Source of the DNA: Minisyncoccota bacterium
GTDB taxonomy: Bacteria; Patescibacteriota; Minisyncoccia; Phycocordibacterales; UBA2135
Assembly (NCBI GenBank): GCA_040879685.1
Contig: JBBDJW010000005.1
Span: forward strand, 21,741-85,740
Direction of reading: 5' to 3'
Length of the DNA stretch: 64,000 bases
The notes beneath the pieces are model-generated. The model worked only from the letters and a program-made list of their open reading frames with translations. It searched no databases and was not told the DNA's origin. Of the stretch, positions 6,157-63,443 are shown one piece after another (positions within the stretch are counted from its first letter, which is position 1; each line of letters starts with the position of its first letter). Both the position numbers and the translations under genes were made by a program.

Positions 6157-7092
6157 ATGGCGAATAGGCACCTTTCAAGAAGTATTGTAATGCAGACCCT
6201 CTTTGAGTGGGATTTTATGCACTATGATACGACAAAAGCACAAGAAATCCTTGAGCGTAATGCTAAGGAGTTTGCTCCCGGATTGCCTCAAGAGGCACGT
6301 GCGGGAGATTTTTCATTTACAAAGAAACTTCTTGAAGGAATTCTTAAAAAACAAAAAACACTAGACTCTCTCATTGAGAAAGCAGCACCTGAATGGCCTC
6401 TTTCTAAAGTATCTATTGTTGACCGCAACGTACTTCGTATAGGTCTCTACGAACTTCTCTTTGGAGTGAAGGGAGAGGTACCTCCTAAGGTGGCAATTAA
6501 CGAAGCAATTGAACTTGCAAAAACGTTTAGCGGGCTCAATAGCGGAAAGTTTATTAATGGAGTGCTCGGTAGCGTCTATCGTGAGTTAGGTGAACCAGGA
6601 AAAAACGACAAGCCAGTAAAAAAGAACCACAACATTGACCCAGCGAAAATGCCTATTTATAAAAAGGGCGGGGCGGTTATCTACAGTATTCATGAAGGAG
6701 TTGTGCATCTCGCCCTTGTCCACGATATCTTTGGCCGTTGGACATTATCAAAAGGAGGGATTGAAACCATGGGTGACCAAAAGGAATTGACAGTAAAAAA
6801 AATTAAAGAGGAAATCGGTATTACTATTACAATAGAAGATACACTCGGAGAGAATGAATACATCGCCTCTGATCCTCAGGAAGGCAAGGTTCGCAAACAA
6901 GTAACCTACTATCTTGCGAGCGCCTCTTATCAAACGCTTACGCTTGGTGAGACCGGGGGACTTGATGATGTAAGATGGTTTCCACTTGCTGAAGTGCCAT
7001 CGTTGAGGATGTATGATGATATTTTGCCGATTTTAACAAAAGGCATTGAGAAGATAACAAAAAAGAAAAACCGTTCAGAAGAAAAAAAATAA
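6157..7092 (+). CDS. nusB: NusB antitermination factor fused to a C-terminal Nudix-fold-like domain with a degenerate Nudix box
   Basis: ATG at 6157 preceded by GGGAAGAGGGAG. The N-terminal 145 aa match NusB: [30 protein letters not shown] versus E. coli [29 protein letters not shown]. The C-terminal 165 aa look like a Nudix fold: [30 protein letters not shown] and [13 protein letters not shown]. The frame is continuous. The ORF-track start at 5974 overlaps rpmF and is rejected. Confidence 0.75.
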   Translation: [311 protein letters not shown]

Positions 7093-7804: not shown

Positions 7805-10111
7805 ATGTACTTGAAGAGACTTCATCTTTCTGGTTTTAAATCATTTGCTCGGGATACTGAGCTTTCATTTACTACTCCTATAACAGCAATTGTTGGACCA
7901 AATGGTTCAGGGAAGTCAAACATTGCAGAAGCGATTCGTTTTGTACTCGGTGAACAGAGTATGAAATCCTTACGCTCAAAACGAGGTGAAGACCTTATCT
8001 TCAACGGTTCAAAAACGCTCTCCCGCGCAAGCAAGGCTAGTGTTGCAATTTCATTTGATAACACAAAAAAAACTTTTCCACTTGATTATGACGAGGTGGA
8101 GCTAAAACGAGTTGTGTATCGTGATACCACCAATCAATATTTTTTAAATGGAAAACGGGTACGATTGAAAGATATTATTGAAACACTCTCGGCGATTCAT
8201 ATTGGTGCGTCAAGTCATCACATTATCTCGCAAGGAGAGGCAGACAGAATTTTAAATGCCTCCATCAAAGAGCGAAGAGTAATGATTGAAGATGCACTTG
8301 GGTTGCGTATTTATCAATATAAAAAAGCAGAAAGCGAACGAAAACTAGCAAAAACAAAAGAAAACATAAACCACGTTGAGGCACTCAACAAAGAAATTAC
8401 TCCGCACCTCAAATTCTTAGAGAAACAAGTAAAGAAAATAGAAGAAGCAGAAGTTTTAAAAAAGGCTCTTATAGAGCTTTATAAGGAATATTTTGCTCTT
8501 GAAGAAGGATACCTAACACATCACCGTCTGCTTCTTGGCAAAAAGCGACATCTTCCTGAGGTGGAGCTTAGGGAGGTAGAGACACAAATAAAAGAGAGCG
8601 AGGAGGGCCTCTTGGTGCTTGAAGGAGGGGAGGTTAAGAGCCAAAAGAGAATTGACCTTGAGGAGAAACTTTCTAAAATTGCCAAAGAAAAAGATGAGCA
8701 CTCCCGCCGCCTCGGGCGTCTTGAGGGAATGCTTCTCTATGAAGAGAAAAGGAAGAAAAGGGCACAAAAAGAACCACGGGGAGAGAGAATAGAGATAAGC
8801 GCTTTCCACTTGCGAGATTTTATTGGTAAGCTCAAAAATCTTATTAAGGAGGGAGAAGGGCTTAGAGACAGTGCTTCTTTGTCGGGGCTTTGGGAGAGAA
8901 TGAAAAACACCGCAGAGGCATTTTATCAGCAGTATGAAATTGTTGCCCTCTCTGAAGAAAAACAAGAAGAGACTAAAATTGATGAAGAGGCTTTGTCACA
9001 CCAAGAGAATGAGGAAGATACCTATGAGCACCTTGTGTCGCAAAAGCGGTTACTTGAAGAAAAAGAACGAACACTGACTTCCGAGGAGAGGGATCTGCAA
9101 GAGAAACGAGAGAAACTTACACACACTATTGAAAAAGAAAGGGTGGAGGAGCGGGCAATTGAACAAAAATTATTTTCTCTACGAACACGAAAAACAGAGC
9201 TTCTTTCAGAAATTGAAATGGTGGGGGTCCATGAAGAGAGGCTCACTGAAGAAGAGAGGCGTTTTAACGTGGAGAGAACGGAAGCTGGGCATCTTCTCGG
9301 CCTTTCCTCTCTTCGTTATGAAAAGAAAACTTTCTCTGAATCAGTTGATAAAGAGGCGTTACGTATCTCACAGGAAGAAAAAAGAAGAAAGGCGGAGAGA
9401 ATGAAGGTTAAAATAGAAGACCTTGTTGGGGGCGGGGGAGACGAGCTCCTTGCTGAATATGAGGAGGTAAAAGAGCGGGCAGAATATTTAGAGAAAGAGC
9501 TTGTTGACTTGAGAAAGAGTACGGGAGCGCTTCTAGAACTTATTGGTGAGCTTGGAGAAAAAATTGACAAGGAATTTAAGGAAGGCGTTTTAAAAATAAA
9601 CAAAGAGTTTGGAAAGCTCTTTGAGACTATGTTTAGCGGGGGTGTTGCTAAAGTCGCATTAATTTCTCCGCCATCAAAACGAATAAAAAGAGATACAGAA
9701 GTTGAAGACGAATTTATAGAGGGGGGAGAGGAATTTGAAGAAGAACAAGAGGAAGGTATTGATATTGAAGTTTCCCTTCCTCATAAACGCCTTAAAGGAC
9801 TCCATATGCTCTCAGGAGGAGAAAGAACACTTACCTCTATTGCGCTCATCTTTGCACTCTCTTTGGTCAATCCGCCACCATTTTTAGTACTTGATGAGAC
9901 AGACGCTGCTCTTGACGAGGCAAATTCAAGAAAATATGGAGAGGTGGTTAAGGAACTCTCAAAAAAGACGCAATTTATTATCATCACTCATAATCGTGAG
10001 ACAATGAATACCGCGCATGTACTCTATGGCGTCACCTCAACTTTCGATGCGGTGTCTAGAATTCTTTCTCTTAAATTTGATGAGGCCGAGGAGTTGGCAC
10101 AAAGTGTGTGA
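7805..10111 (+). CDS. smc: SMC-family chromosome segregation ATPase, short form. Head domains and coiled coil are present; no hinge is recognisable.
   Basis: N-terminus LSGFKSF...IVGPNGSGKSNIAEAIRFVLGE. C-terminus LSGGERTLTSIALIFAL...LVLDETDAALDEAN. The 770 aa between are all charged heptad-like sequence. The in-frame ATG at 7805 is preferred over the TTG at 7778, which overlaps the rnc stop. Confidence 0.8.
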   Translation: MYLKRLHLSGFKSFARDTELSFTTPITAIVGPNGSGKSNIAEAIRFVLGEQSMKSLRSKRGEDLIFNGSKTLSRASKASVAISFDNTKKTFPLDYDEVELKRVVYRDTTNQYFLNGKRVRLKDIIETLSAIHIGASSHHIISQGEADRILNASIKERRVMIEDALGLRIYQYKKAESERKLAKTKENINHVEALNKEITPHLKFLEKQVKKIEEAEVLKKALIELYKEYFALEEGYLTHHRLLLGKKRHLPEVELREVETQIKESEEGLLVLEGGEVKSQKRIDLEEKLSKIAKEKDEHSRRLGRLEGMLLYEEKRKKRAQKEPRGERIEISAFHLRDFIGKLKNLIKEGEGLRDSASLSGLWERMKNTAEAFYQQYEIVALSEEKQEETKIDEEALSHQENEEDTYEHLVSQKRLLEEKERTLTSEERDLQEKREKLTHTIEKERVEERAIEQKLFSLRTRKTELLSEIEMVGVHEERLTEEERRFNVERTEAGHLLGLSSLRYEKKTFSESVDKEALRISQEEKRRKAERMKVKIEDLVGGGGDELLAEYEEVKERAEYLEKELVDLRKSTGALLELIGELGEKIDKEFKEGVLKINKEFGKLFETMFSGGVAKVALISPPSKRIKRDTEVEDEFIEGGEEFEEEQEEGIDIEVSLPHKRLKGLHMLSGGERTLTSIALIFALSLVNPPPFLVLDETDAALDEANSRKYGEVVKELSKKTQFIIITHNRETMNTAHVLYGVTSTFDAVSRILSLKFDEAEELAQSV

Positions 10112-16482: not shown

Positions 16483-17232
16483 ATGAGAGAAGATGTTGCA
16501 CGAACATTAGAAGAGGTAGATAGGGGAGCTGAAGCACCGAAAGGGGAGAAGTATATCCCCAATAAGGTGAGTTTTTGGCGTCTCATTGCTATTTTGAGGG
16601 AGTTTCAAAAGGGATTTAATCTTATTCAAAAATATTCACTTGCAGTGACATTTTTTGGATCTTCTCGGGAGTGTCTCTCAAAAGAAACATACGCAGAAGT
16701 TACTAAACTCGCTCGCATACTTTCAAAAGACGGCTTTACCGTAATTACCGGAGGAGGTGGGGGTGTTATGGGTGCGGCAAACAAGGGGGCTCATGAGGCA
16801 GGAGGGGATTCTGTTGGGGTAAATATTAAACTTCCTCATGAACAAAATCTTAACAAGTACACAACAGATTCTAAGGAATTTAAATATTTCTTTATTAGAA
16901 AGATAATGCTCTCGTTTGCTTCTGAAGCATATATTTTTTTCCCTGGAGGTTACGGTACCTTAGATGAGTTTTTTGAGATTATTACACTTATTCAGACAAA
17001 GAAAATTCAACCGATTCCTGTTGTGCTTGTGGGAAAGAGTTATTGGTCTCCTCTTATAGAGTGGATAAACAAAACACTTTATGAAAAAAAAGGCACGATT
17101 AATAAGGAAGATTTAGAAATTTTTTTTCTTGTTGATAACGCCGAAGAAGCACACAAAGCAACACATCTTCTTCTTAAAAAACTTTGTCCAACGTGCCTCG
17201 CTGACCATGGAGTAGCGGAGAAATGTGAGTGA
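16483..17232 (+). CDS. LOG family protein (TIGR00730-type Rossmann-fold nucleotide-binding / cytokinin riboside 5'-monophosphate phosphoribohydrolase-like)
   Basis: GGGGGVMGAANKGA and PGGYGTLDEFFE motifs. The ATG at 16483 follows the stop of the upstream gene. Confidence 0.8.
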   Translation: MREDVARTLEEVDRGAEAPKGEKYIPNKVSFWRLIAILREFQKGFNLIQKYSLAVTFFGSSRECLSKETYAEVTKLARILSKDGFTVITGGGGGVMGAANKGAHEAGGDSVGVNIKLPHEQNLNKYTTDSKEFKYFFIRKIMLSFASEAYIFFPGGYGTLDEFFEIITLIQTKKIQPIPVVLVGKSYWSPLIEWINKTLYEKKGTINKEDLEIFFLVDNAEEAHKATHLLLKKLCPTCLADHGVAEKCE

Positions 17233-17504
17233 ACAGAGCGCATAGTTTTTAGATTTTAGGATGCATCTCACCGTCGGGAAAGACAAGGTGGGTGCAAATG
17301 ATTAAAAAAACGATAGGGGATAGGGTTTTTGCGCCCTTGTTTCTCTATCTTATCGTGTCGCACAATATACATTTTACGTAGGTAAGAATATCAATAAAGA
17401 AGGTAATAGTTACTACCTTCTGAATTTTACTTTCTAATTCCTACTTCTAGTTTCAACAGTTGTAATTTTCCGAAAGTTATAGACCTTGTGACGTAACACC
17501 TCTC

Positions 17505-17541
17505 GTTACCGTGTTATACTTCCGAAGTATAATACGGTAAC
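17505..17541. repeat. near-perfect 37-bp palindrome in a 650-bp non-coding region
   Basis: gttaccgtgttatacttcCgaagtataatacggtaac, with 1 mismatch between arms. Confidence 0.6.
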
Positions 17542-17631
17542 TGAGAAGTCCGACTCCTCAGTAACTCCTCAGTAGAGTGCTCAATACAAAAAATATTCCT
17601 AAAAACTCCCCTATGCCTTTCCATTCCATAT

Positions 17632-17821: not shown

Positions 17822-17857
17822 CAATACTCCAATATTCTATAGAATGTTGGAGTATTG
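17822..17857. repeat. 36-bp near-perfect palindrome/hairpin CAATACTCCAAtattctatagaatgTTGGAGTATTG, a possible terminator for the minus-strand operon ending at 17879
   Basis: Arms of 11 bp are perfect and the centre is itself palindromic. A T-rich tract follows on the minus strand. Confidence 0.5.
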
Positions 17858-24691: not shown

Positions 24692-24799
24692 AGCATAGCT
24701 CCTTATATATATGAATTTAAAAAAAACTTCTTTACCGCTTCTTGTCTTTTATCATATATAGTCTATCTTGTCAATATCTCGTGTGGTAGATTCAATAGC

Positions 24800-24820
24800 G
24801 TCAAAAGCTTAGCTTTTGAC
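24800..24820. repeat. 21-bp palindromic hairpin GTCAAAAGCTTAGCTTTTGAC, copy 1
   Basis: Perfect 9-bp arms. An identical element in reverse-complement orientation lies at 25048-25068. Confidence 0.7.
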
Positions 24821-25047
24821 AATGGGGGCAGGAAATTATAAAACCGTCAAATTGTGCACTATCCAATGTTGAAATTAATTATGGAACTCACCCCAAGAGG
24901 AAAAACTTCTGGGAGAGGTATGCTTCTAAAACACCTCTGTAGAGCTGTTTTAGAGACTATTTTAGAGAAAGAATTTCTTCATAATTATATATTTGATGCT
25001 ATAGCATTAAATATATAATTTCCTCCGCCGAGAAATTATGCCTAAGT

Positions 25048-25068
25048 GTCAAAAGCTAAGCTTTTGAC
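25048..25068. repeat. 21-bp palindromic hairpin GTCAAAAGCTAAGCTTTTGAC, copy 2, the reverse complement of copy 1
   Basis: Exact reverse complement of 24800-24820. The two bracket about 230 bp of non-coding DNA. Confidence 0.7.
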
Positions 25069-25161
25069 ACTACGGGAATAAAATCAAAAAACTGTTTCGC
25101 CTACTGCGCGACGGTTTTTTATTCCTATAGCAACCTACAGCAATGGTAATAATATCTTTTT

Positions 25162-29783: not shown

Positions 29784-30066
29784 AAGATAACTAAATAACC
29801 AATGAAAATAACTTAAATTCTTATCTTGAATAAAATCCAGATTCTCATTGAAGTGATTGTATGTGTTCTAGTTGCTGGCGTTTACCTATCCGTTTTTACT
29901 TACTTGAAAGATCTTTTTCATATCAAGGTGTATTTAAATAAATTATAAACACACTATAGCGGTCGCCATCGTCACGTACAATTTCCATACCGCGCGCTCC
30001 GCGTTTGATACTATGCACAACCGATCCGATTTCGTATAGTTCAATTCGCAGAGCATTATTATTTAC

Positions 30067-30119
30067 ACACAAGTCTGACTTGTGTATATGTGGTATTTAT
30101 ACACAAGTCAGACTTGTGT
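30067..30119. repeat. tandem pair of 19-bp palindromes, ACACAAGTCTGACTTGTGT at 30067-30085 and ACACAAGTCAGACTTGTGT at 30101-30119. Each is followed by (R)TATGTGG.
   Basis: Seen directly in the sequence. The same palindrome also occurs at 17632-17650. Confidence 0.7.
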
Positions 30120-30178
30120 GTATGTGGCGGTCAGAGTTTTGGTGGTGATCAGTGAAGAGATAAAGCCCCTTTGCAAAT

Positions 30179-30700
30179 CTACACAAACTCATCACGGTCG
30201 GTGAAATAGATGCTGACAAGCGGTAGGACAAGGCTCCAAAAGAACCACAAAGGTGAGCCCAGAATCATCTCCAGTTGTGGTGAAAGCGGATAGAGTTCGG
30301 GAAGCGGAATAATTCTATATGCAAAGAAAAAGAAAAGTGCGGTAGTAAAAAAAGAAAGTAAAACCATCTGAAAAAATTTTTCTAAGAAATTTTCAGGATA
30401 GCGGGCAAGGATAATCTGCGCAACAGCAAGAAAGGAGATAAAAATACCAAGCAGAAATACAAGCGCTTTAAGCTGTGGTGCTTCCAGCGGTATTTTGGAG
30501 AGAAGTAATTCCCAAAAGGGAAAAAAGAGAAGTATGAATCCGGTAAGATAAAGAGAGAGGAGAATCGCCACCAACTTGCTCTTACCCTTCAATGTGGTAA
30601 AGACAAGAGAAATAACAAATATCCCAAGGAGAATGAGGACATCTCCCGAGAGAGAAAGAAAACTTTCTGAAAGTGCCCCTGTAAGTGCGGTGGCGTCCAT
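30179..30700 (-). CDS. hypothetical polytopic membrane protein
   Basis: 173 aa with 5-6 hydrophobic helices. No recognisable motif. Confidence 0.5.
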   Translation of the reverse strand: MDATALTGALSESFLSLSGDVLILLGIFVISLVFTTLKGKSKLVAILLSLYLTGFILLFFPFWELLLSKIPLEAPQLKALVFLLGIFISFLAVAQIILARYPENFLEKFFQMVLLSFFTTALFFFFAYRIIPLPELYPLSPQLEMILGSPLWFFWSLVLPLVSIYFTDRDEFV

Positions 30701-47223: not shown

Positions 47224-47262
47224 AGAAAAATAAAGTGGTTATGTATAAATATTTTTAGACCA

Positions 47263-47288
47263 ATCAATCTTACGTAGATAAGATTGAT
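47263..47288. repeat. hairpin ATCAATCTTAcgtagaTAAGATTGAT (10-bp stem), about 40 nt upstream of the 46765-47223 gene start
   Basis: Perfect inverted repeat seen in the sequence. Confidence 0.6.
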
Positions 47289-47362
47289 CCCATCTAGTAG
47301 TTTAATAATACCACCTCCTTTTGTAATGTACACCTCTAGGGTGAAAGGTTATACACAAATGG

Positions 47363-47431
47363 AAAATACCACCCGAAGGTGGTATTTTCCAGTGTACTTA
47401 TTTTATGCCCGGAGGCAAAAAATAAGTACAC
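47363..47431. repeat. two adjacent perfect hairpins with A/T flanks: AAAATACCACCcgaaGGTGGTATTTT (47363-47388) and GTGTACTTATTTT-N14-AAAATAAGTACAC (47392-47431)
   Basis: Seen directly. These are terminator-like, but no gene is immediately upstream on either strand. Confidence 0.6.
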
Positions 47432-47562
47432 CATGAGTATATAGATAGGATCTCTCTGTGTCAAATATAAAATCTTAAACCTGTGGAAAACTAAAAAATC
47501 CCCTTATTTTGCAGTAATTATTTCTTGTTGTTTAAACATTAAGTGTTGAGCATTTTTAAGTT

Positions 47563-47603
47563 AAAACCACCAGAATGGTGCCATTCTGGTGGTTTTTGAT
47601 TTT
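47563..47603. terminator. bidirectional intrinsic terminator aaaaCCACCAGAATGGtgCCATTCTGGTGGtttttgattttt
   Basis: 12-bp GC-rich stem with an A-run upstream and a T-run downstream. Confidence 0.7.
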
Positions 47604-47659
47604 TCCTCTATCCCGACATACTACATCTTCTTGTTTGTCTATAATACGGAGGTAGCTCT

Positions 47660-47695
47660 CACACTAAAATAAAAACGAGGACCGGAGTCCTCGTT
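47660..47695 (-). terminator. intrinsic terminator of the repeat-protein gene (47715-48305)
   Basis: AACGAGGACcggaGTCCTCGTT, followed on the minus strand by UUUUUAUUUUA. Confidence 0.75.
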
Positions 47696-47714
47696 GTGTC
47701 TCTGTGAGTCGCAG

Positions 47715-48305
47715 TTATGCGACGGCGGTGCAAGCGGGAAAGATGATGGGGTGCTCGTCTGTAAAAGAGCATCCGCATTCTTTCTCGTGGAGTGACATCA
47801 GTTCGTCACGATGGCGAATAAGGGCTTCAGCGAGCTTACGATCAGCTTCAGCGCCCCTCCGACCAGCTTCAGCGCGCTTACGATTAGCTTCATCACGCTC
47901 CCGACGAGCTTCATCGTACTTCCGCTCAGCTTCAGCGAGCCTCCGATGAGCTTCATTCCACTCCCGATCAGCTTCAATGAGTCTCCGCTGAGCTTCATCA
48001 CGCTCCCGATTAGCTTCATCGTACTTCCGCTCAGCTTCAGCGAGCTTACACACAGCATCTTCAACCTCAGAAGGAATCTCTCCCATAACCGGTTTGAAGA
48101 GCTGGAGACGGAGCTCTCGTTCGTCTACGAATTTTTCCACGATACACGCCACCCGCTCCTTGTAATCCCAGCAGAACTCAATCGCTTCTTCGTTGTGATG
48201 CACATGCCAGTACATACCGGGAGTGAACGTTTTGATACGTTCATCAACAAGTTCTGCTGTCTCCTGGCTGACGCCTTTCACCTCACTCCAGTTTATACTT
48301 TCCAT
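47715..48305 (-). CDS. hypothetical protein with a tandem charged-repeat region (8-aa R..xEAxR periodicity, plus a 35-aa duplication) between unique N- and C-terminal segments
   Basis: Translation ...LAEAERKYDEANRERDEAQRRLIEADREWNEAHRRLAEAERKYDEARRERDEANRKRAEAGRRGAEADRKLAEA... The start is chosen at MESINW (48305), which has a GAGAGAGAGAAG purine tract upstream. No homolog recognised. Confidence 0.6.
   Translation of the reverse strand: MESINWSEVKGVSQETAELVDERIKTFTPGMYWHVHHNEEAIEFCWDYKERVACIVEKFVDERELRLQLFKPVMGEIPSEVEDAVCKLAEAERKYDEANRERDEAQRRLIEADREWNEAHRRLAEAERKYDEARRERDEANRKRAEAGRRGAEADRKLAEALIRHRDELMSLHEKECGCSFTDEHPIIFPACTAVA
47820..48060. repeat. intragenic tandem DNA repeats: 24-nt units containing AGCTTCA, and a 105-nt duplication (53-nt cores at 47888-47940 and 47993-48045, 2 mismatches)
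   Basis: Seen directly. Both periodicities are multiples of 3, so the reading frame is preserved. Confidence 0.8.
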
Positions 48306-48427
48306 CTTCTCTCTCTCTTGTTTGTGAATCTGTACACAGATTGTCATAGTGGAGTGTTTTTGTCAACCCCTCTACAACTCATCCAACGTCTAATGTTGGA
48401 CATTTTGTTTCAGCATAGCTTCTTTCA

Positions 48428-52943: not shown

Positions 52944-53079
52944 TGCAAAGAAAAAGCCGCGTCTTAAAAAGAGCGGCTTATATGGCGTTAGATTGAATCC
53001 CGGAGAAGCTCCGGTCTGCTGTAGTCCTTAGACCTTTGGTACAAGTATTAGACCCGCCTTCCGAAGTTCAATCTAACAA
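52944..53079 (-). ncRNA. candidate small RNA or structured leader of about 135 nt. 5' and 3' ends pair over 11 bp (GUUAGAUUGAA / UUCAAUCUAAC), there are internal hairpins, and it ends in an intrinsic terminator. Its identity is unknown.
   Basis: Minus strand, starting at the TSS: TTGCTT-N16-TATACT promoter (plus coordinates 53084-53111), then gttagattgaa (pairs with 52987-52997), CCGGAG/CTCCGG and GGUCU/AGACC hairpins, then terminator AAGCCGC-N12-GCGGCTT + UUUUUCUUU (52944-52979). No ORF. Not tRNA-like. Confidence 0.45.
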
Positions 53080-53083
53080 AAGC

Positions 53084-53111
53084 AGTATAGCAGATGGATA
53101 GTTTTAAGCAA
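53084..53111 (-). promoter_or_regulatory. sigma70-like promoter TTGCTT-N16-TATACT driving the candidate sRNA/leader
   Basis: Read on the minus strand. Confidence 0.4.
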
Positions 53112-53320
53112 CCCCATCTATGACCGCAGGTACTTTTGCACTCCGCTGGTAATTTCTCATAGTGTAGTAGTTTTCCAACCGGTGTCAGCTTGTTCCGTAT
53201 TGTAGAAGAGGAGCCACTACATACTATAGAGTATATGTGTTTATTACTTATAACGATAAGAACCTATACCCCATACTACGCTATAGCGTATAATAGGGTA
53301 TAGGTAGTAACTCAATAGAG

Positions 53321-53373
53321 GTGGTTATTAAAATATGGACATCGGATGTCCATATTTTAATAACCCAACCACC
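53321..53373. terminator. large hairpin/terminator downstream of uvrB. The core is a perfect palindrome AAAATATGGACATCgGATGTCCATATTTT (53330-53358), extended by GGTGGTTATT / AATAACC-CAA-CCACC.
   Basis: Seen directly. A/T flanks. 15 nt past the uvrB stop. Confidence 0.7.
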
Positions 53374-53388
53374 TAAAGACTAAGGGCT

Positions 53389-55410
53389 TCATGACTTCTC
53401 TTGGAGAGCAAGAATCTCATCACGCAGAAGTGCTGCCGTCTCAAAGTCTAAAATCTTAACCGCTTCGTTCATCTGACGCTCTTTTTCTTTGATGAGCTTC
53501 TTGGGTGCCCTTTTATAGAGATCTCGGTCAACTTCAAGAAGCGTTTTGAGCGCTCGCTCATGCTCGCTTTCAAGCTGTTGTGTAATATCATTAATCGCCT
53601 TCTTGATACCTTGCGGAGTAATGCCGTGTTTTTTATTGTATGCTTCTTGAATTTCTCGTCTACGCTGTGTCTCATCAAGCGCTCGTTGCATAGAGCCTGT
53701 TATCTTATCGGCATAGAGAATCACTTTTCCATTGATATTACGCGCCGCACGGCCAATGGTCTGAATGAGAGATGTCTCGCTCCGTAAAAATCCCTCTTTA
53801 TCAGCATCCAGAATCCCAATAAGAGAAACCTCCGGCAAATCCAGTCCTTCCCGCAAAAGATTCACTCCCACAAGACAATCAAACACCCCCCTTCTAAAAT
53901 CAGTAAGTATTTTTATTCGTTCAATTGTTTTGACATCGCTGTGCACAAACTCCGCCTTCACACCCTTTTCATTAAGGTAAGTTGTCAAATCTTCTGCCAT
54001 GCGCTTGGTAAGCGTTGTTACCATCGTACGATCTCCCTTTTTCACCACGCGCACTGCCTTGTCAATAAAGTCATGAATCTGCCCTTTATACTCACCCTTT
54101 TCAATAACTCCACAAACGACAAGCTCGGGGTCCAAAAGCCCCGTAGGGCGTATCACCTGCTCAACAATGTGCATCGGATCGGTGTTTTCTCTTTCATATG
54201 CTCCGGGAGTTGCCGAAGTGTAGAGTCGTTGCCCCACACGTTCCTCAAATTCATAAAATTTCAAAGGACGGTTATCAAGCGCTGAAGGAAGTCTGAAACC
54301 ATGTTCTACTAAATTTTTCTTTCGTGAAGCATCTCCTACATGCATACCCGCAAGCTGAGGGATGCTAACATGAGACTCATCTATAATGGTCAAGAAATCC
54401 GCGCTTCCGTCCTTGTTTCTAGGAAAGTATGAAAGAAGTGTATCGGGCGCTTCGCCTTTTTTCTTGCCAGAGAGATGTCGTGAATAATTTTCAATGCCGT
54501 TACAATACCCAACTTCACGAAGAAGTGTGATGTCGCCTTTTGTTCTGCGTACAAGTCTGTCTGCCTCAAGAATTTTGCCCATATCCTGAAGCTCTTTTAC
54601 TCTTTGTTTTAGTTCGGCTTGTATGTTTTTAATCGCTCCCTCCAATCGTTCTTTGTTAGTAACAAAATGCTTTGCCGGAAAAAGATAATATATATCAACT
54701 TCTTCAAGTATGGTGTTGCTTACAGGATCAATCTTCACAATGCGAGAAACCTCATCTCCATCAAGCTCAACGCGAAATGTCTGCCTCACATTAACCGGCA
54801 TAATCTCAACCACGTTGCCGATAACCCGAAAGTATCCCGGAGTAAGATCAGCTGGCGTCCTTTCAAAATACAAAGAAACGAGGAGCCTTAAAAATTCCTT
54901 TCTACTTGCCTTCATTCCTTTTTTAATCTCCAAGTGCTCTTTTCTATACTCATCAGGACTTCCTAATCCATAGATTGCAGAGACAGAAGCAACCACAATA
55001 ACATCACGTCTGCTTAAAAGGTCTTGCGTTGTCGCGTGCCGAAGGCGGTCAATCTCTTCATTGACCTGTGCTTCTTTTTCAATATAGGTGTCTGAAATAG
55101 GAACATACGCCTCCGGTTGGTAATAATCATAATACGAAACGAAATAGTGCACCGCATTATTTGGAAAAAAATCTCGGTATTCCTGTACAAGCTGAGCGGC
55201 AAGCGTCTTATTGTGAGCAATGATAAGCGTTGGCTTATTTATACGCTCAATAATATTTGCCGCCGTAAATGTCTTACCTGAACCCGTCACACCCAAAAGC
55301 GTCTGGTGCTTTACACCGGTTTTAATGCCACGATACAGTGCCTCAATCGCCTTAGGCTGGTCGCCTTCCGGTTTGTAGTGCGAGGAAAGTTCTAGATTTT
55401 TTTGCGCCAT
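53389..55410 (-). CDS. uvrB: excinuclease ABC subunit B
   Basis: LLGVTGSGKTFTAANIIERINKPTLIIAHNKTLAAQL, helicase motifs and a UVR domain at the C-terminus. 673 aa. Confidence 0.95.
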   Translation of the reverse strand: MAQKNLELSSHYKPEGDQPKAIEALYRGIKTGVKHQTLLGVTGSGKTFTAANIIERINKPTLIIAHNKTLAAQLVQEYRDFFPNNAVHYFVSYYDYYQPEAYVPISDTYIEKEAQVNEEIDRLRHATTQDLLSRRDVIVVASVSAIYGLGSPDEYRKEHLEIKKGMKASRKEFLRLLVSLYFERTPADLTPGYFRVIGNVVEIMPVNVRQTFRVELDGDEVSRIVKIDPVSNTILEEVDIYYLFPAKHFVTNKERLEGAIKNIQAELKQRVKELQDMGKILEADRLVRRTKGDITLLREVGYCNGIENYSRHLSGKKKGEAPDTLLSYFPRNKDGSADFLTIIDESHVSIPQLAGMHVGDASRKKNLVEHGFRLPSALDNRPLKFYEFEERVGQRLYTSATPGAYERENTDPMHIVEQVIRPTGLLDPELVVCGVIEKGEYKGQIHDFIDKAVRVVKKGDRTMVTTLTKRMAEDLTTYLNEKGVKAEFVHSDVKTIERIKILTDFRRGVFDCLVGVNLLREGLDLPEVSLIGILDADKEGFLRSETSLIQTIGRAARNINGKVILYADKITGSMQRALDETQRRREIQEAYNKKHGITPQGIKKAINDITQQLESEHERALKTLLEVDRDLYKRAPKKLIKEKERQMNEAVKILDFETAALLRDEILALQEKS

Positions 55411-55458
55411 AGAAATGGAGTATAGCGCAAAGAGAGGTTTTATAAAAATGCCTGAACC

Positions 55459-55494
55459 TTTTCCAATACGCCAGACGCCTGGCGTATTGGAAAA
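55459..55494. promoter_or_regulatory. 36-bp perfect palindrome TTTTCCAATACGCCAGacgcCTGGCGTATTGGAAAA just upstream of a putative uvrB promoter (TTTATA-N16-TATACT, then about 8 nt to the ATG)
   Basis: Seen directly. 16-bp perfect arms. 49-84 nt upstream of the uvrB start codon. Confidence 0.5.
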
Positions 55495-55690
55495 TTATGC
55501 AAAGGAGGACTTTACCCCCAGCGCTTGCCCCGCCATCTGGAAATACATACCCGGCAGTAATACAATGTCCAAAATCTGATTTATGACATTGTTTTGAAAT
55601 TTTGGACACTCCTTGTATCATAAAAACATTCAAACATTATTGATAATGTTTAAATGTTTTACTCTCTTCTCTACTACTGCCGACCGACCA

Positions 55691-55849
55691 CCTGCCGGCA
55701 GGCCTTATACACGCTTTCTCCTCACCACTTTACTTTAAAATTATATATTCAGACCTATAGGTCTGAATATATAATTTTCTCTCTCTTCACTCCTTTCTAC
55801 CTGCCGGCAAGCAGACTCCTCCCTCCTCATTCCCTCTCTGCCGGCAAGT
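55691..55849. promoter_or_regulatory. three copies of the palindromic core TGCCGGCA (CCTGCCGGCAGG at 55691-55702, CTGCCGGCAAG at 55801-55811 and 55838-55848) in a CT-rich tract, flanking a 42-bp perfect A/T-flanked palindrome
   Basis: Seen directly in the sequence. Confidence 0.5.
55737..55778. repeat. 42-bp perfect palindrome AAAATTATATATTCAGACCTA|TAGGTCTGAATATATAATTTT (possible bidirectional terminator)
   Basis: Seen directly. Downstream of the trxB and small-ORF transcription unit. Confidence 0.6.
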
Positions 55850-55883
55850 TTACCCTTTATTACACCTATACAAAATACCTATA

Positions 55884-56099
55884 CTAAATCACTCCTATCT
55901 CCAATAGATAACCAGCAACGACAAGCACAACGCCCGACCAGCCGACAAACTGCTCTATCTTCATTGTTGTAAAAACTTTTCGGTCAATTTTATGTTCACG
56001 CAATACGCGATGATGTACCCGAAGCGCGGCATAAGCAATAAAGAGTGTCCCAAGAACCTCAAGAGTAAGTCCCATGTTGCTTGTTATTGCACCTATCAT
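55884..56099 (-). CDS. hypothetical small membrane protein (71 aa, 2 predicted TM segments)
   Basis: Lies immediately downstream of trxB on the same strand. Hydrophobic segments LTLEVLGTLFIAYAAL and GWSGVVLVVAGYLLEIGVI. Uncertain. Confidence 0.35.
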   Translation of the reverse strand: MIGAITSNMGLTLEVLGTLFIAYAALRVHHRVLREHKIDRKVFTTMKIEQFVGWSGVVLVVAGYLLEIGVI

Positions 56100-56102
56100 A
56101 AA

Positions 56103-57086
56103 TTATTTTTGTATGAGCTTATGTTTGGAAGGTTGTTGATGAAGTGGACACAAATCACCATGCTTTTTTATCTCTTCATAAGCTGAAGTGGCGGCAAGCG
56201 CTCCTGATGCGGCGGCAGTGATGGCCTGCTTAAAAGAACCAAAGTGGTTCATAGTATCCCCCGCAACCAAAAGTCCATCAACACCTGTGTGCATTGTGGC
56301 ATCAACTTCAATATAACCATGCTTGCCGAGCTTTACGCCAAGCGGTTTTACAAGCTCCACATGAGGAACATATCCTATCTGAACAAACAAAGCATCAACA
56401 ACAAGCTCCTTGCTTCCGTTAAATGCCTTTGTAAGAATTACCTTTTCAAACTTTTCATCTCCCACAATTTCTTTTACTTCCGTTTCCTGCAAAACCTCTA
56501 CTTTTTCTCCCACCCTCTCAAGATTCTCACGGTTAACCGGCTCGCCTGAGAGCGTCGCTTCGCGGTTTATGATATACACTTTTTCTGCATACTCTGAAGC
56601 GAGTGTCGCGGCCTTCACCGCGCTGTCTCCCCCACCAGCAATCGCGATTTTTTTGCCGGTATAGAGCGGGCCGTCGCACGTAACACAATAATGAACTCCT
56701 TTGCCTGTGAGCTCTTTTTCATTAGGGATGTTGAGTTTTCTGCTTTCAGCCCCACCGGCAAAGATAACAACTGTTGCGTGATAGCGCTCATCTCCCGCCA
56801 TCAATGTAAAGCAATGATTTTCTTTTTTTAAGCTCTTTACTTCCGTGCTTTTAAATTCTGCCCCAACTTCTTTGGCTTGCTCTTTCATAATTTTTGTGAG
56901 CTCATAGCCGTCAAGCGACTTCACACCAGGGTAGTTGGCAATTTTCCCCGCCGTTGCCGTCTCACCTCCCGGCTCTTTCTCAAAAACAACCGTATCAAGC
57001 AAGTAACGCCCGCAATAGAGACCCGCCGCAAGGCCTGCAACACCGGAGCCAATAATGGCAACGTCATAGATATTTTTTTTCTCCAT
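56103..57086 (-). CDS. trxB: thioredoxin-disulfide reductase
   Basis: IGSGVAGLAAGLY (FAD), CVTCDG redox motif and a second Rossmann motif GGGDSA. Start at MEKKNIYDV (57086). Confidence 0.88.
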   Translation of the reverse strand: MEKKNIYDVAIIGSGVAGLAAGLYCGRYLLDTVVFEKEPGGETATAGKIANYPGVKSLDGYELTKIMKEQAKEVGAEFKSTEVKSLKKENHCFTLMAGDERYHATVVIFAGGAESRKLNIPNEKELTGKGVHYCVTCDGPLYTGKKIAIAGGGDSAVKAATLASEYAEKVYIINREATLSGEPVNRENLERVGEKVEVLQETEVKEIVGDEKFEKVILTKAFNGSKELVVDALFVQIGYVPHVELVKPLGVKLGKHGYIEVDATMHTGVDGLLVAGDTMNHFGSFKQAITAAASGALAATSAYEEIKKHGDLCPLHQQPSKHKLIQK

Positions 57087-57273
57087 TACGTTTATAATAC
57101 CACGCCAGGAGGACATTGGGTGAGCACGTGTGGATATCCCGATAGAGTAAAAGGTTAAGGGTATGTGTTTTTTTAGACACGCACGCCCAACTAATCGCAC
57201 GTTCTTACTCCTCAATCTTTCGGCTCTGATTTTGTATGTTATGTACCGCACTGCTCTATGCTACAATAAAAAC

Positions 57274-63046: not shown

Positions 63047-63092
63047 TCCCACTATTTACCACTTTCTTAAATTATATACTACTTTCTCCCAC
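63047..63092 (-). promoter_or_regulatory. putative MraZ operator/promoter: GTGGGA (63087-63092), TATAAT -10 hexamer (63071-63076), GTGGTA (63057-63062), GTGGGA (63047-63052)
   Basis: Read on the minus strand. Box spacings of 30 and 10 bp fit the known 10-bp phasing of MraZ TGGGN repeats. Confidence 0.4.
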
Positions 63093-63115
63093 TTCACTAA
63101 AAAGTTATCCACATC

Positions 63116-63154
63116 AATAAACCGCTAAAATCTAAAAGATTTTAGCGGTTTATT
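63116..63154. repeat. 39-bp perfect hairpin/palindrome AATAAACCGCTAAAATCTaaaAGATTTTAGCGGTTTATT upstream of the dcw operon promoter
   Basis: 18-bp perfect arms, seen directly. Confidence 0.6.
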
Positions 63155-63239
63155 GGTTTCTGAGAGTCTCTAGCTTTTCCAAAAGGCATGGTACAAGAGC
63201 GTCTCGGTGCACTTGCAAGGTTGTGCCTTTAAAAGGTTA

Positions 63240-63263
63240 CTTACTTCAGTTAACTGAAGTAAG
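63240..63263. repeat. 24-bp perfect palindrome CTTACTTCAGTTAACTGAAGTAAG
   Basis: Seen directly. Lies in the intergenic region between greA and mraZ. Confidence 0.6.
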
Positions 63264-63443
63264 TCGTCTTTCAAACTTCACTCTCTAAATGCAGGGGTAT
63301 CTTTTTGTCCGAATCATCTCATTTCTTGGAGGTAACCTTGTTTAAAGCCCGACTTTAAAACAAGGTGAGTATTTGGATAATTGTAACGCACCTCTGTACC
63401 GCTCGTATAGTGTGTTAGCAACACATACGCCGAAGGGTGTAGA

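Follow-up and report, generated by a model that had tools for sequence, protein, structure and literature searches.

Results

Genes and features of the locus

The DNA analysed as a whole, hereafter the window, is a stretch of 64,000 nucleotides from a metagenome-assembled genome of Candidatus Paceibacterota (CPR). The region of interest is a spacer of 473 bp (55411-55883) whose flanking genes all lie on the minus strand, i.e., uvrB (53389-55410) on one side and a 71-aa ORF, orf71 (55884-56099), followed by trxB (56103-57251), on the other. A preliminary description had spoken of a trxB-uvrB spacer of 470 bp; the uvrB border holds and the length is 473 bp, but orf71 (WD003_00870, MEX0933799.1), which is membrane-like, conserved in relatives and located downstream of trxB, intervenes between trxB and the spacer. 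No regulator gene is found among the neighbours trxB, orf71, pfkB, uvrB and uvrA. Stops interrupt the spacer in six of six reading frames, and none of its ORFs is present in a collection of 15 billion proteins, in which the flanking orf71 was found. A coding role was rejected on these grounds, together with the fact that a 262-aa ORF found in the relative L085 has left no trace in the window.

The plus strand is strongly CT-rich, as had been described, with G at 23 of the 247 bases in 55654-55900, though this polarity is not unique to the spacer and is the same as that of the surrounding minus-strand genes with their purine-rich sense strand. Across the window, a Shine-Dalgarno-like motif stands upstream of only 11 of 57 ORFs (~19%), and many gene starts lie 6-9 nt behind a TGnTATACT/TATAAT -10 box, which implies largely leaderless mRNAs and extended -10 promoters. 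The cumulative GC skew has its maximum at ~17200-17550, where plus-strand genes (to 17232) meet minus-strand genes (from 17514) in a terminus-like arrangement, with a weak dif-like string GTCGCACAATATACATTTTACGT in the gap between the strands.

The features of the spacer, with positions in the window, are the following; the boxes and the two units are described below.

55419-55446, minus strand: uvrB promoter TTTATA-16-TATACT, 8 nt before the ATG of a nearly leaderless mRNA; TATACT stands in the same place in L085.
55459-55494: perfect inverted repeat, arms of 16 nt (TTTTCCAATACGCCAG/CTGGCGTATTGGAAAA), separated by 12 nt from the downstream uvrB -35 element.
55480-55513, minus strand: block with 25 of 34 positions in common with L085, where its orientation to uvrB is the same (sequence comparison).
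55559-55608: mutually exclusive inverted repeats, i.e., TGTCCAAAAT/ATTTTGGACA and 18-nt arms at 55559-55576 and 55578-55595 (repeat scan).
55623-55660, minus strand: long hairpin of unit 2, an AT-rich inverted repeat whose arms measure 18 nt (repeat scan, RNA folds).
55661-55676, minus strand: linker of unit 2, UAGUAGAGAAGAGAGU on the minus strand (direct repeat D3).
55677-55684, minus strand: box 0, a degenerate fourth box that pairs with box 1 (plus strand CTGCCGAC; RNA folds).
55691-55702, minus strand: box 1, CCTGCCGGCAGG, half of the unit 2 GC stem (repeat scan, RNA folds).
55737-55778: perfect 42-bp palindrome, AT-rich with the centre CTATAG, the long hairpin of unit 1 (repeat and promoter scans).
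55779-55798, minus strand: linker of unit 1, AGAAAGGAGUGAAGAGAGAG on the minus strand (direct repeat D3, 79% against the unit 2 linker).
55799-55812, minus strand: box 2, ACCTGCCGGCAAGC on the plus strand, 3' half of the unit 1 GC stem (RNA folds).
55838-55849, minus strand: box 3, CTGCCGGCAAG on the plus and ACUUGCCGGCAG on the minus strand, 5' half of the unit 1 GC stem (repeat scan, RNA folds).
55856-55885, plus strand: 30-nt block TTTATTACACCTATACAAAATACCTATACT, 26 of 30 positions in common with L085, promoter-like (TTTATT-18-TATACT) on the G-poor strand.

GC boxes and palindromes

The self-complementary octamer TGCCGGCA occurs at 55693-55700, 55802-55809 and 55839-55846, three times within 160 bp. 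The preliminary description was accurate on the details of these boxes, of which copy one is a perfect 12-mer palindrome (55691-55702) and copies two and three are identical 11-mers (55801-55811 and 55838-55848), and on the palindromes around them: the perfect palindrome of 42 bp is present between copies 1 and 2, the one placed around 55631-55650 is AAACATTATtgATAATGTTT at 55632-55651, and the further inverted repeat is GTCCAAAAT/ATTTTGGAC at 55567-55575 and 55599-55607. The octamer was counted 5 times in the window against 0.65 expected, a palindromic 8-mer with three copies within 160 bp arose in 0 of 100 third-order Markov simulations of 64 kb, and of nine CTGCCGG heptamers in the window, five fall in 55551-55844. 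The cluster of boxes and the 42-bp palindrome are each far beyond chance.

Outside the spacer, TGCCGGCA has two copies in 63.5 kb, both within ORFs. The enrichment that had been proposed as a check is real in the window, but it comes with no intergenic copies outside the spacer in the 64 kb, and the boxes are a local structural feature, not a dispersed or new genome-wide motif. This, like the unconserved spacer of L082, speaks against the proposal that they serve a nucleoid or partition protein. ParS is a 16-bp palindrome of the TGTTNCACGTGAAACA type with several origin-proximal copies, whereas the boxes are unrelated to it in sequence, have no dispersed intergenic copies in 64 kb and lie in a terminus-like neighbourhood, ~38 kb from the skew maximum at which the gene strands converge.

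A literature search for the octamer returned primers and phage ends only, and comparison by eye with the dif/Xer, LexA, RDRM, Fur/PerR and sigma-54 consensus sequences gave no convincing match. A metagenome scan for CTGCCGGC-N15-45-ATACAAAATACCTA yielded five matches, all in one unrelated coding family, and these were rejected as a chance match; the double-box pattern had >120 uninspected matches among viral contigs, presumably chance matches in GC-rich contigs. Mini-ORFs with Shine-Dalgarno-like motifs over the boxes (MPAERE*, MPAGRKE*) were likewise treated as chance, since the frame differs at box 1.

The 42-bp palindrome contains the promoter-like hexamers TTCAGA-16-TATAAT facing outward on both strands, and scores 10/12 as a sigma-70 promoter in both directions. 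A terminator scan flagged it only for the plus strand; the sequence after it on the minus strand is UUUUAAAG. The palindrome AAACATTATtgATAATGTTT, of the form AAACATTAT, is the core of the longer inverted repeat 55623-55660, whose 18-nt arms are 94% complementary and form a 17/18-bp stem followed on the minus strand by UUUUUAUGAU (UUUUUAU). Within the same repeat lies, at 55641-55649 of the plus strand, the one sequence of the spacer that matches an extended -10 element, TGATAATGT. In the repeat 55459-55494 the T run comes first, so it is not terminator-shaped. Promoter-like and terminator-like signals were thus found on both strands of the spacer.

The 30-nt block at 55856-55885 contains a tandem repeat of the octamer ACCTATAC, which occurs 5 times in the window against 0.66 expected. 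Four of these copies flank uvrB: two, inverted, are the outer arms of a 44-bp palindrome downstream of the gene (53262-53305), and two make up a 13-nt tandem repeat at the orf71 stop (55864-55889). The only other assembly of the locus, the Logan contig SRR27977663_457698 (L001/L097), is identical in sequence and ends in the middle of the 42-bp palindrome; the break probably arose as an artefact of assembly, from a perfect palindrome that exceeds the k-mer in length.

Two tandem units and their folding

The region consists of two diverged tandem copies of one unit made of a GC stem, a linker and an AT-rich hairpin. Along the minus strand, a GC stem formed by two CTGCCGGC-type boxes is followed by an unpaired linker and then by an AT-rich hairpin with A/T-run flanks. 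Unit 1 comprises the stem of box 3 with box 2, the linker AGAAAGGAGUGAAGAGAGAG and the 42-bp palindrome, and unit 2 the stem of box 1 with box 0, the linker UAGUAGAGAAGAGAGU and the hairpin 55660-55623, after which comes UUUUUAU. On the minus strand the stem of boxes 3 and 2 has 11 bp, one of them a G.U pair, and on the plus strand 8 bp followed, beyond an A.C mismatch, by 2 more; the purine loop of 27 nt inside this stem reads AGAGGGAAUGAGGAGGGAGGAGU on the minus strand. The stem of boxes 1 and 0 has 8 bp and a loop of 9 nt.

In the direct-repeat analysis the boxes (D1), the linkers (D3) and the two AT hairpins recur at a spacing of 109-119 nt, and unit 1 aligns with unit 2 at a score 4.7 sd higher than that of shuffles. 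Boxes and linkers are conserved in sequence from one unit to the other, the latter with a common ..GAAGAGAG.. on the purine-rich minus strand and ..CUCUCUUC.. on the CT-rich plus strand, whereas the AT hairpins are nearly unrelated in sequence and keep only their pairing.

RNA folding of 55600-55890 gave z -8.7 against shuffles, and that of the whole spacer z -9.5. The boxes pair as stems in both the minimum-energy and the centroid structures, and the pairing of box 3 with box 2 is predicted for either strand. The mismatches in 55623-55660 and in the two box stems become G.U pairs on the minus strand, but this local hint at the transcribed strand is unreliable because the tally of G.U wobbles over all hairpins of the window points the opposite way (13 on the plus strand vs 5 on the minus strand).

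Hairpin arrays across the window

All six tested spacers of at least 390 nt, each between minus-strand genes (24692-25161, 29784-30178, 47224-47714, 52949-53388, 55411-55883 and 63053-63443; ~2.7 kb of 64 kb), folded at z -5.7 to -9.5 vs shuffles, the orf71-uvrB spacer being the most extreme, whereas coding controls ranged from z -2.3 to +0.75, nine of ten lying within 0.75 of zero. Apart from an AT palindrome, the six spacers have no sequence in common. Hairpins with arms of at least 12 nt number 23 in the window vs 1.7 in simulations, and nearly all are intergenic.

The shared palindrome recurs at 24983-25020 with outer arms and a CTATAG centre identical to those of the 42-bp palindrome, and the five inner pairs differ between the two by four double compensatory changes and one wobble, giving the pattern AATTATATATT-N5-CTATAG-N5-AATATATAATT. 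Of the 17 CTATAG hexamers in the window, five are the centres of long zero-loop palindromes (centred at 17837, 24999, 41175, 53281 and 55755), all between co-directional minus-strand genes. This suggests that CTATAG is a preferred loop or centre for hairpins of this genome. The 42-bp palindrome is accordingly an ordinary member of a local hairpin class and not a singular element, and the members of this class are probably terminator or RNA-end hairpins.

Several other structures of the window deserve mention. The spacer 24692-25161 carries the palindromic box GTCAAAAGCTNAGCTTTTGAC twice (24800-24822 and 25047-25069), on either side of its AT palindrome, and a plus-strand hairpin with a U6 terminator ~100 nt downstream. 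In the gap between uvrB and uvrA (52951-53092, minus strand), a good extended -10 promoter, TGCTATACT at 53092..53084, precedes a long hairpin of ~90 nt with GUUAGAUUGAA/UUCAAUCUAAC as its closing pair. After it comes a GC hairpin with a U5 tract, ending immediately ahead of the putative start of uvrA. This element folds at z -4.75, has no Rfam match and looks like a stand-alone small RNA of ~125 nt or a leader that attenuates uvrA. The longest hairpin of the window (30064-30122, arms of 26-28 nt, TACACACAAGTCTGACTTGTGTATA...) lies upstream of the gene 30179-30700, and a dense tandem repeat of GCTTCAGC/AGCTTCAT at 47824-47999 is inside a 210-aa ORF (47715-48347).

Relatives of the locus

The nearest UvrB among 5.8 billion proteins is 71% identical, and a scan of a genome collection with UvrB found only relatives of at most 65% identity, with no alignable spacer. 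Through homologues of orf71, the order trxB-orf-uvrB was recovered in the two relatives L082 and L085 only, others having different contexts or contigs of <1 kb, and the comparison of spacers is thus one with two distant relatives (UvrB at most 71% identical). L082 (UvrB 71% and orf70 65% identical) keeps the order pfkB-trxB-orf70-uvrB. Its spacer of 98 bp holds one long terminator hairpin and a TTGACA-17-TAAAAT promoter, and GCCGGC is absent from it; the hairpin, with 24-bp arms and starting TAGGTA, lies directly after the orthologous ORF. Because the L082 spacer is so short, ~370 bp of the spacer in the window are taken to be lineage-specific.

L085 has its extra ORF, of no known family, and a spacer of 417 bp. 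This spacer contains one CTGCCGGC box, 35 nt upstream of the 30-nt block on the G-poor strand vs 21 nt in the window. The box has no strong pairing partner and no comparable hairpin, and box and block together are inverted relative to the flanking genes between the window and L085. The block is promoter-like in both genomes (TTTAT[T/A]-17/18-TA[T/C]ACT) and resembles the own uvrB promoter of each; equally, it could be one surviving arm of an ancestral terminator hairpin. The comparison of the syntenic spacers that had been proposed as a check is thus divided, with 98 bp and no box in L082 but one box and the 30-nt block in L085. In a third relative, L083, a tgt gene lies between the small ORF/trxB and uvrB. 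Similar long palindromes after genes occur in the relatives, and in L083 the same pair of perfect palindromes (ACACTAATTCTCACGATCG..., GAACC-A/T-rich-GGTTC) is found twice, at 6366-6456 and 7820-7910, beside toxin-antitoxin genes.

These comparisons bear directly on the array of binding sites that had been suggested for the boxes. Its local form would make the TGCCGGCA boxes duplex sites of a dimeric regulator controlling the uvrB-like promoter on the G-poor strand at 55856-55885 or the outward-facing TTCAGA-16-TATAAT promoters of the palindrome. The box that L085 keeps near the 30-nt block (26/30), without a comparable hairpin, fits such operators, as do the resemblance of this block to the uvrB promoter in each genome, the identity of two pairs of boxes over 11 nt, the 10/12 promoter score of the 42-bp palindrome in both directions and the flanking repeated box GTCAAAAGCTNAGCTTTTGAC (24800, 25047) in the other spacer with an AT palindrome. 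However, no regulator gene is adjacent, the distance from box to promoter differs by 14 bp between the window and L085, boxes 2 and 3 are 37 bp apart and thus on opposite faces of the helix, and the flanks of the core are conserved asymmetrically (CTGCCGGCAAG). L082 moreover lacks the box, which has no other intergenic copies in 64 kb, and the promoters of this genome usually carry TGn upstream of the -10 element, which the palindrome does not. We consider a local operator array, the main rival of the reading preferred below, possible but somewhat unlikely. The wider suggestion of a binding-site array retains the one box kept in L085, against the two outside copies within ORFs and the unconserved spacer of L082; such an array is neither proven nor needed to account for the boxes.

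The variability of the locus also raises the question whether the region is a neutral by-product of rearrangement or decayed mobile DNA, with orf71-uvrB as an insertion hotspot and the boxes and palindromes as functionless remains left behind where sequence was duplicated or inverted, or where DNA was inserted into an ancestral terminator hairpin. Each relative has a content of its own at the locus (98 bp in L082, a 262-aa ORF and 417 bp in L085, tgt in L083), the orientation of the 30-nt block to the flanking genes is opposite in the window and in L085, and the block could be a surviving arm of a terminator such as the TAGGTA hairpin after the ORF in L082. However, the window contains no terminal inverted repeats with target-site duplication, as a MITE or insertion-sequence remnant would have, and no second copy in its 64 kb. 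BLAST against phages and plasmids found no match, nor did a scan of viral contigs for the palindrome family. A perfect stem of 21 bp, a stem of 17/18 bp and compensatory changes would be unexpected in decaying DNA unless they were maintained by template-switch correction. We therefore regard neutral debris as unlikely. Of the mobile or recombination remnant mentioned in the preliminary description, the lineage-specific ~370 bp and the inverted shared block remain; the terminal repeats with target duplications, a second copy in 64 kb and a similarity to phages or plasmids were not found.

Discussion

We interpret the core of the spacer (55615-55850) as a lineage-specific, non-coding, tandemly duplicated hairpin module. 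Our preferred reading, held tentatively and with somewhat less than an even chance, is that this core is a transcribed hairpin array acting as a terminator or insulator, or as a pair of small RNAs. It is non-coding, strongly structured and duplicated, it conserves pairing over sequence, it belongs to a genome-wide class and it has features of terminators. The hairpins sit at the 3' end of the predicted transcription unit, where intrinsic terminators lie; past the orf71 stop, the 42-bp palindrome comes after 106 nt and the hairpin 55623-55660 after 224 nt, both ahead of the uvrB promoter.

RNA polymerase arriving from trxB-orf71 on the minus strand would transcribe the array, and the nascent RNA would fold into four hairpins in succession. 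The last of them, 55660-55623 with its UUUUUAU, would stop transcription, with the earlier hairpins serving as a backup and as protection of the 3' end. The nearly leaderless promoter of uvrB could thereby be shielded from read-through. In a variant of this mechanism, one or two small RNAs of ~80-130 nt could be made from either strand, for which structured ends and a conserved single-stranded centre are suitable. We infer that TGCCGGCA recurs because it is the self-complementary core of a stem within a duplicated unit, and not because it is a genome-wide protein site. The boxes as RNA-hairpin stems of a duplicated module are at least as well supported as the protein-binding sites of the preliminary description.

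Several observations speak against the transcribed module. The U-tracts that follow the AT hairpins on the minus strand are weak or missing, and the stems of these hairpins are far longer and more AT-rich than those of classical terminators. The extra ~370 bp are unneeded for termination, since L082 manages with a single hairpin in 98 bp. The unpaired CTGCCGGC box of L085 argues for sequence-specific recognition and not for stem formation, and template-switch mutation can keep palindromes perfect without selection.

A more specific proposal, which seems improbable to us, takes the units for two small regulatory RNAs of a kind so far undescribed, encoded in tandem by a CPR bacterium. On the plus strand, each RNA would start at an AT-rich palindromic promoter, expose a CU-rich seed CUCUCUUCACUCCUUUCU resembling an anti-Shine-Dalgarno sequence and finish with the hairpin of the GC boxes. 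A third, related RNA could be driven by the palindrome 24983-25020, with the 5' end UCCUCCGCC and the U6 terminator ~100 nt downstream, and the targets would be the minority of mRNAs that have a Shine-Dalgarno sequence.

The purine-rich minus strand suggests yet another role, that of a sponge RNA of the CsrB/RsmZ type which displays GGA/AGGAG in its loops and linkers and titrates a CsrA-like protein or 30S subunits. GGAG/GAGG motifs reach a density of 42 per kb on the minus strand of 55600-55860 vs 11.5 per kb in the window, and the 27-nt loop between boxes 3 and 2 has four motifs of this type. However, any purine-rich sequence abounds in such motifs, a crude pattern search of the window found no CsrA-like ORF, and no homologue with this arrangement was found. 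The whole window has no match at the Rfam gathering threshold, and at E<=10 the spacer gave only below-threshold hairpin-noise matches to microRNA models, hence none to this family at any threshold. A sponge RNA is therefore very improbable. A CsrA-binding RNA of the Coxiella/Legionella type had also been considered and was dropped once UvrB homologues placed the genome in Paceibacterota.

If the array acts as a terminator or insulator, it documents how transcription units are separated in a tiny Patescibacteria genome, which is useful for annotation and not surprising. As either a pair of small RNAs or a regulated promoter beside uvrB, it would be among the first candidate elements for post-transcriptional regulation or for regulation of the DNA-damage response in this uncultured group.

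Among known systems, operator arrays of local repressors resemble the spacer in having a self-complementary 8-12-mer three times within 160 bp beside promoter-like elements, but here the adjacent regulator gene is missing, the spacing is irregular and conservation is partial. The spacer has the GGA-rich loops of CsrB/RsmZ RNAs, though no match to the family model and, in the crude search of the window, no CsrA-like ORF. Intrinsic or bidirectional terminators are another comparison. Like them, the hairpins have A/T-run flanks and stand between co-directional genes, UUUUUAU comes after the repeat 55623-55660 on the sense strand, the terminator scan called the 42-bp palindrome terminator-like, and a plain terminator occupies the orthologous position in L082. 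They differ from the usual GC-rich stems of 5-14 bp in their length of 17-21 bp and their A+T content of ~80-85%, in the series of four hairpins, in the weak U-tracts of the sense strand, and in GC stems with loops of 9 and 27 nt and no minus-strand U-tract.

The REP/BIME elements of Enterobacteria, which have roles in protection of mRNA 3' ends and in termination, are similar as strong palindromes clustered between co-directional genes, and here too the elements form a genome-wide class and are not a one-off. REPs are dispersed, near-identical copies, whereas in this genome the arrays differ in sequence from spacer to spacer; recurrence is limited to the AT palindrome (2 copies) and to the CTATAG centre (5 copies), the rest of each array being unique, and no RAYT-type transposase was seen. 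Tandem paralogous small RNAs (OmrA/B, Qrr, LhrC, streptococcal csRNAs) differ from the present units in that these have no unambiguous promoter, a Shine-Dalgarno-like target in only ~19% of the ORFs and no homologous family in Rfam. They are like the units in forming two adjacent, diverged copies with structured ends and a conserved unpaired stretch. The csRNAs and LhrC have anti-Shine-Dalgarno seeds, and the plus-strand version of the units is CU-rich with CCUCC-like motifs. The feature can thus be placed as a further case of structured intergenic hairpins, or as a candidate small RNA, in an understudied lineage.
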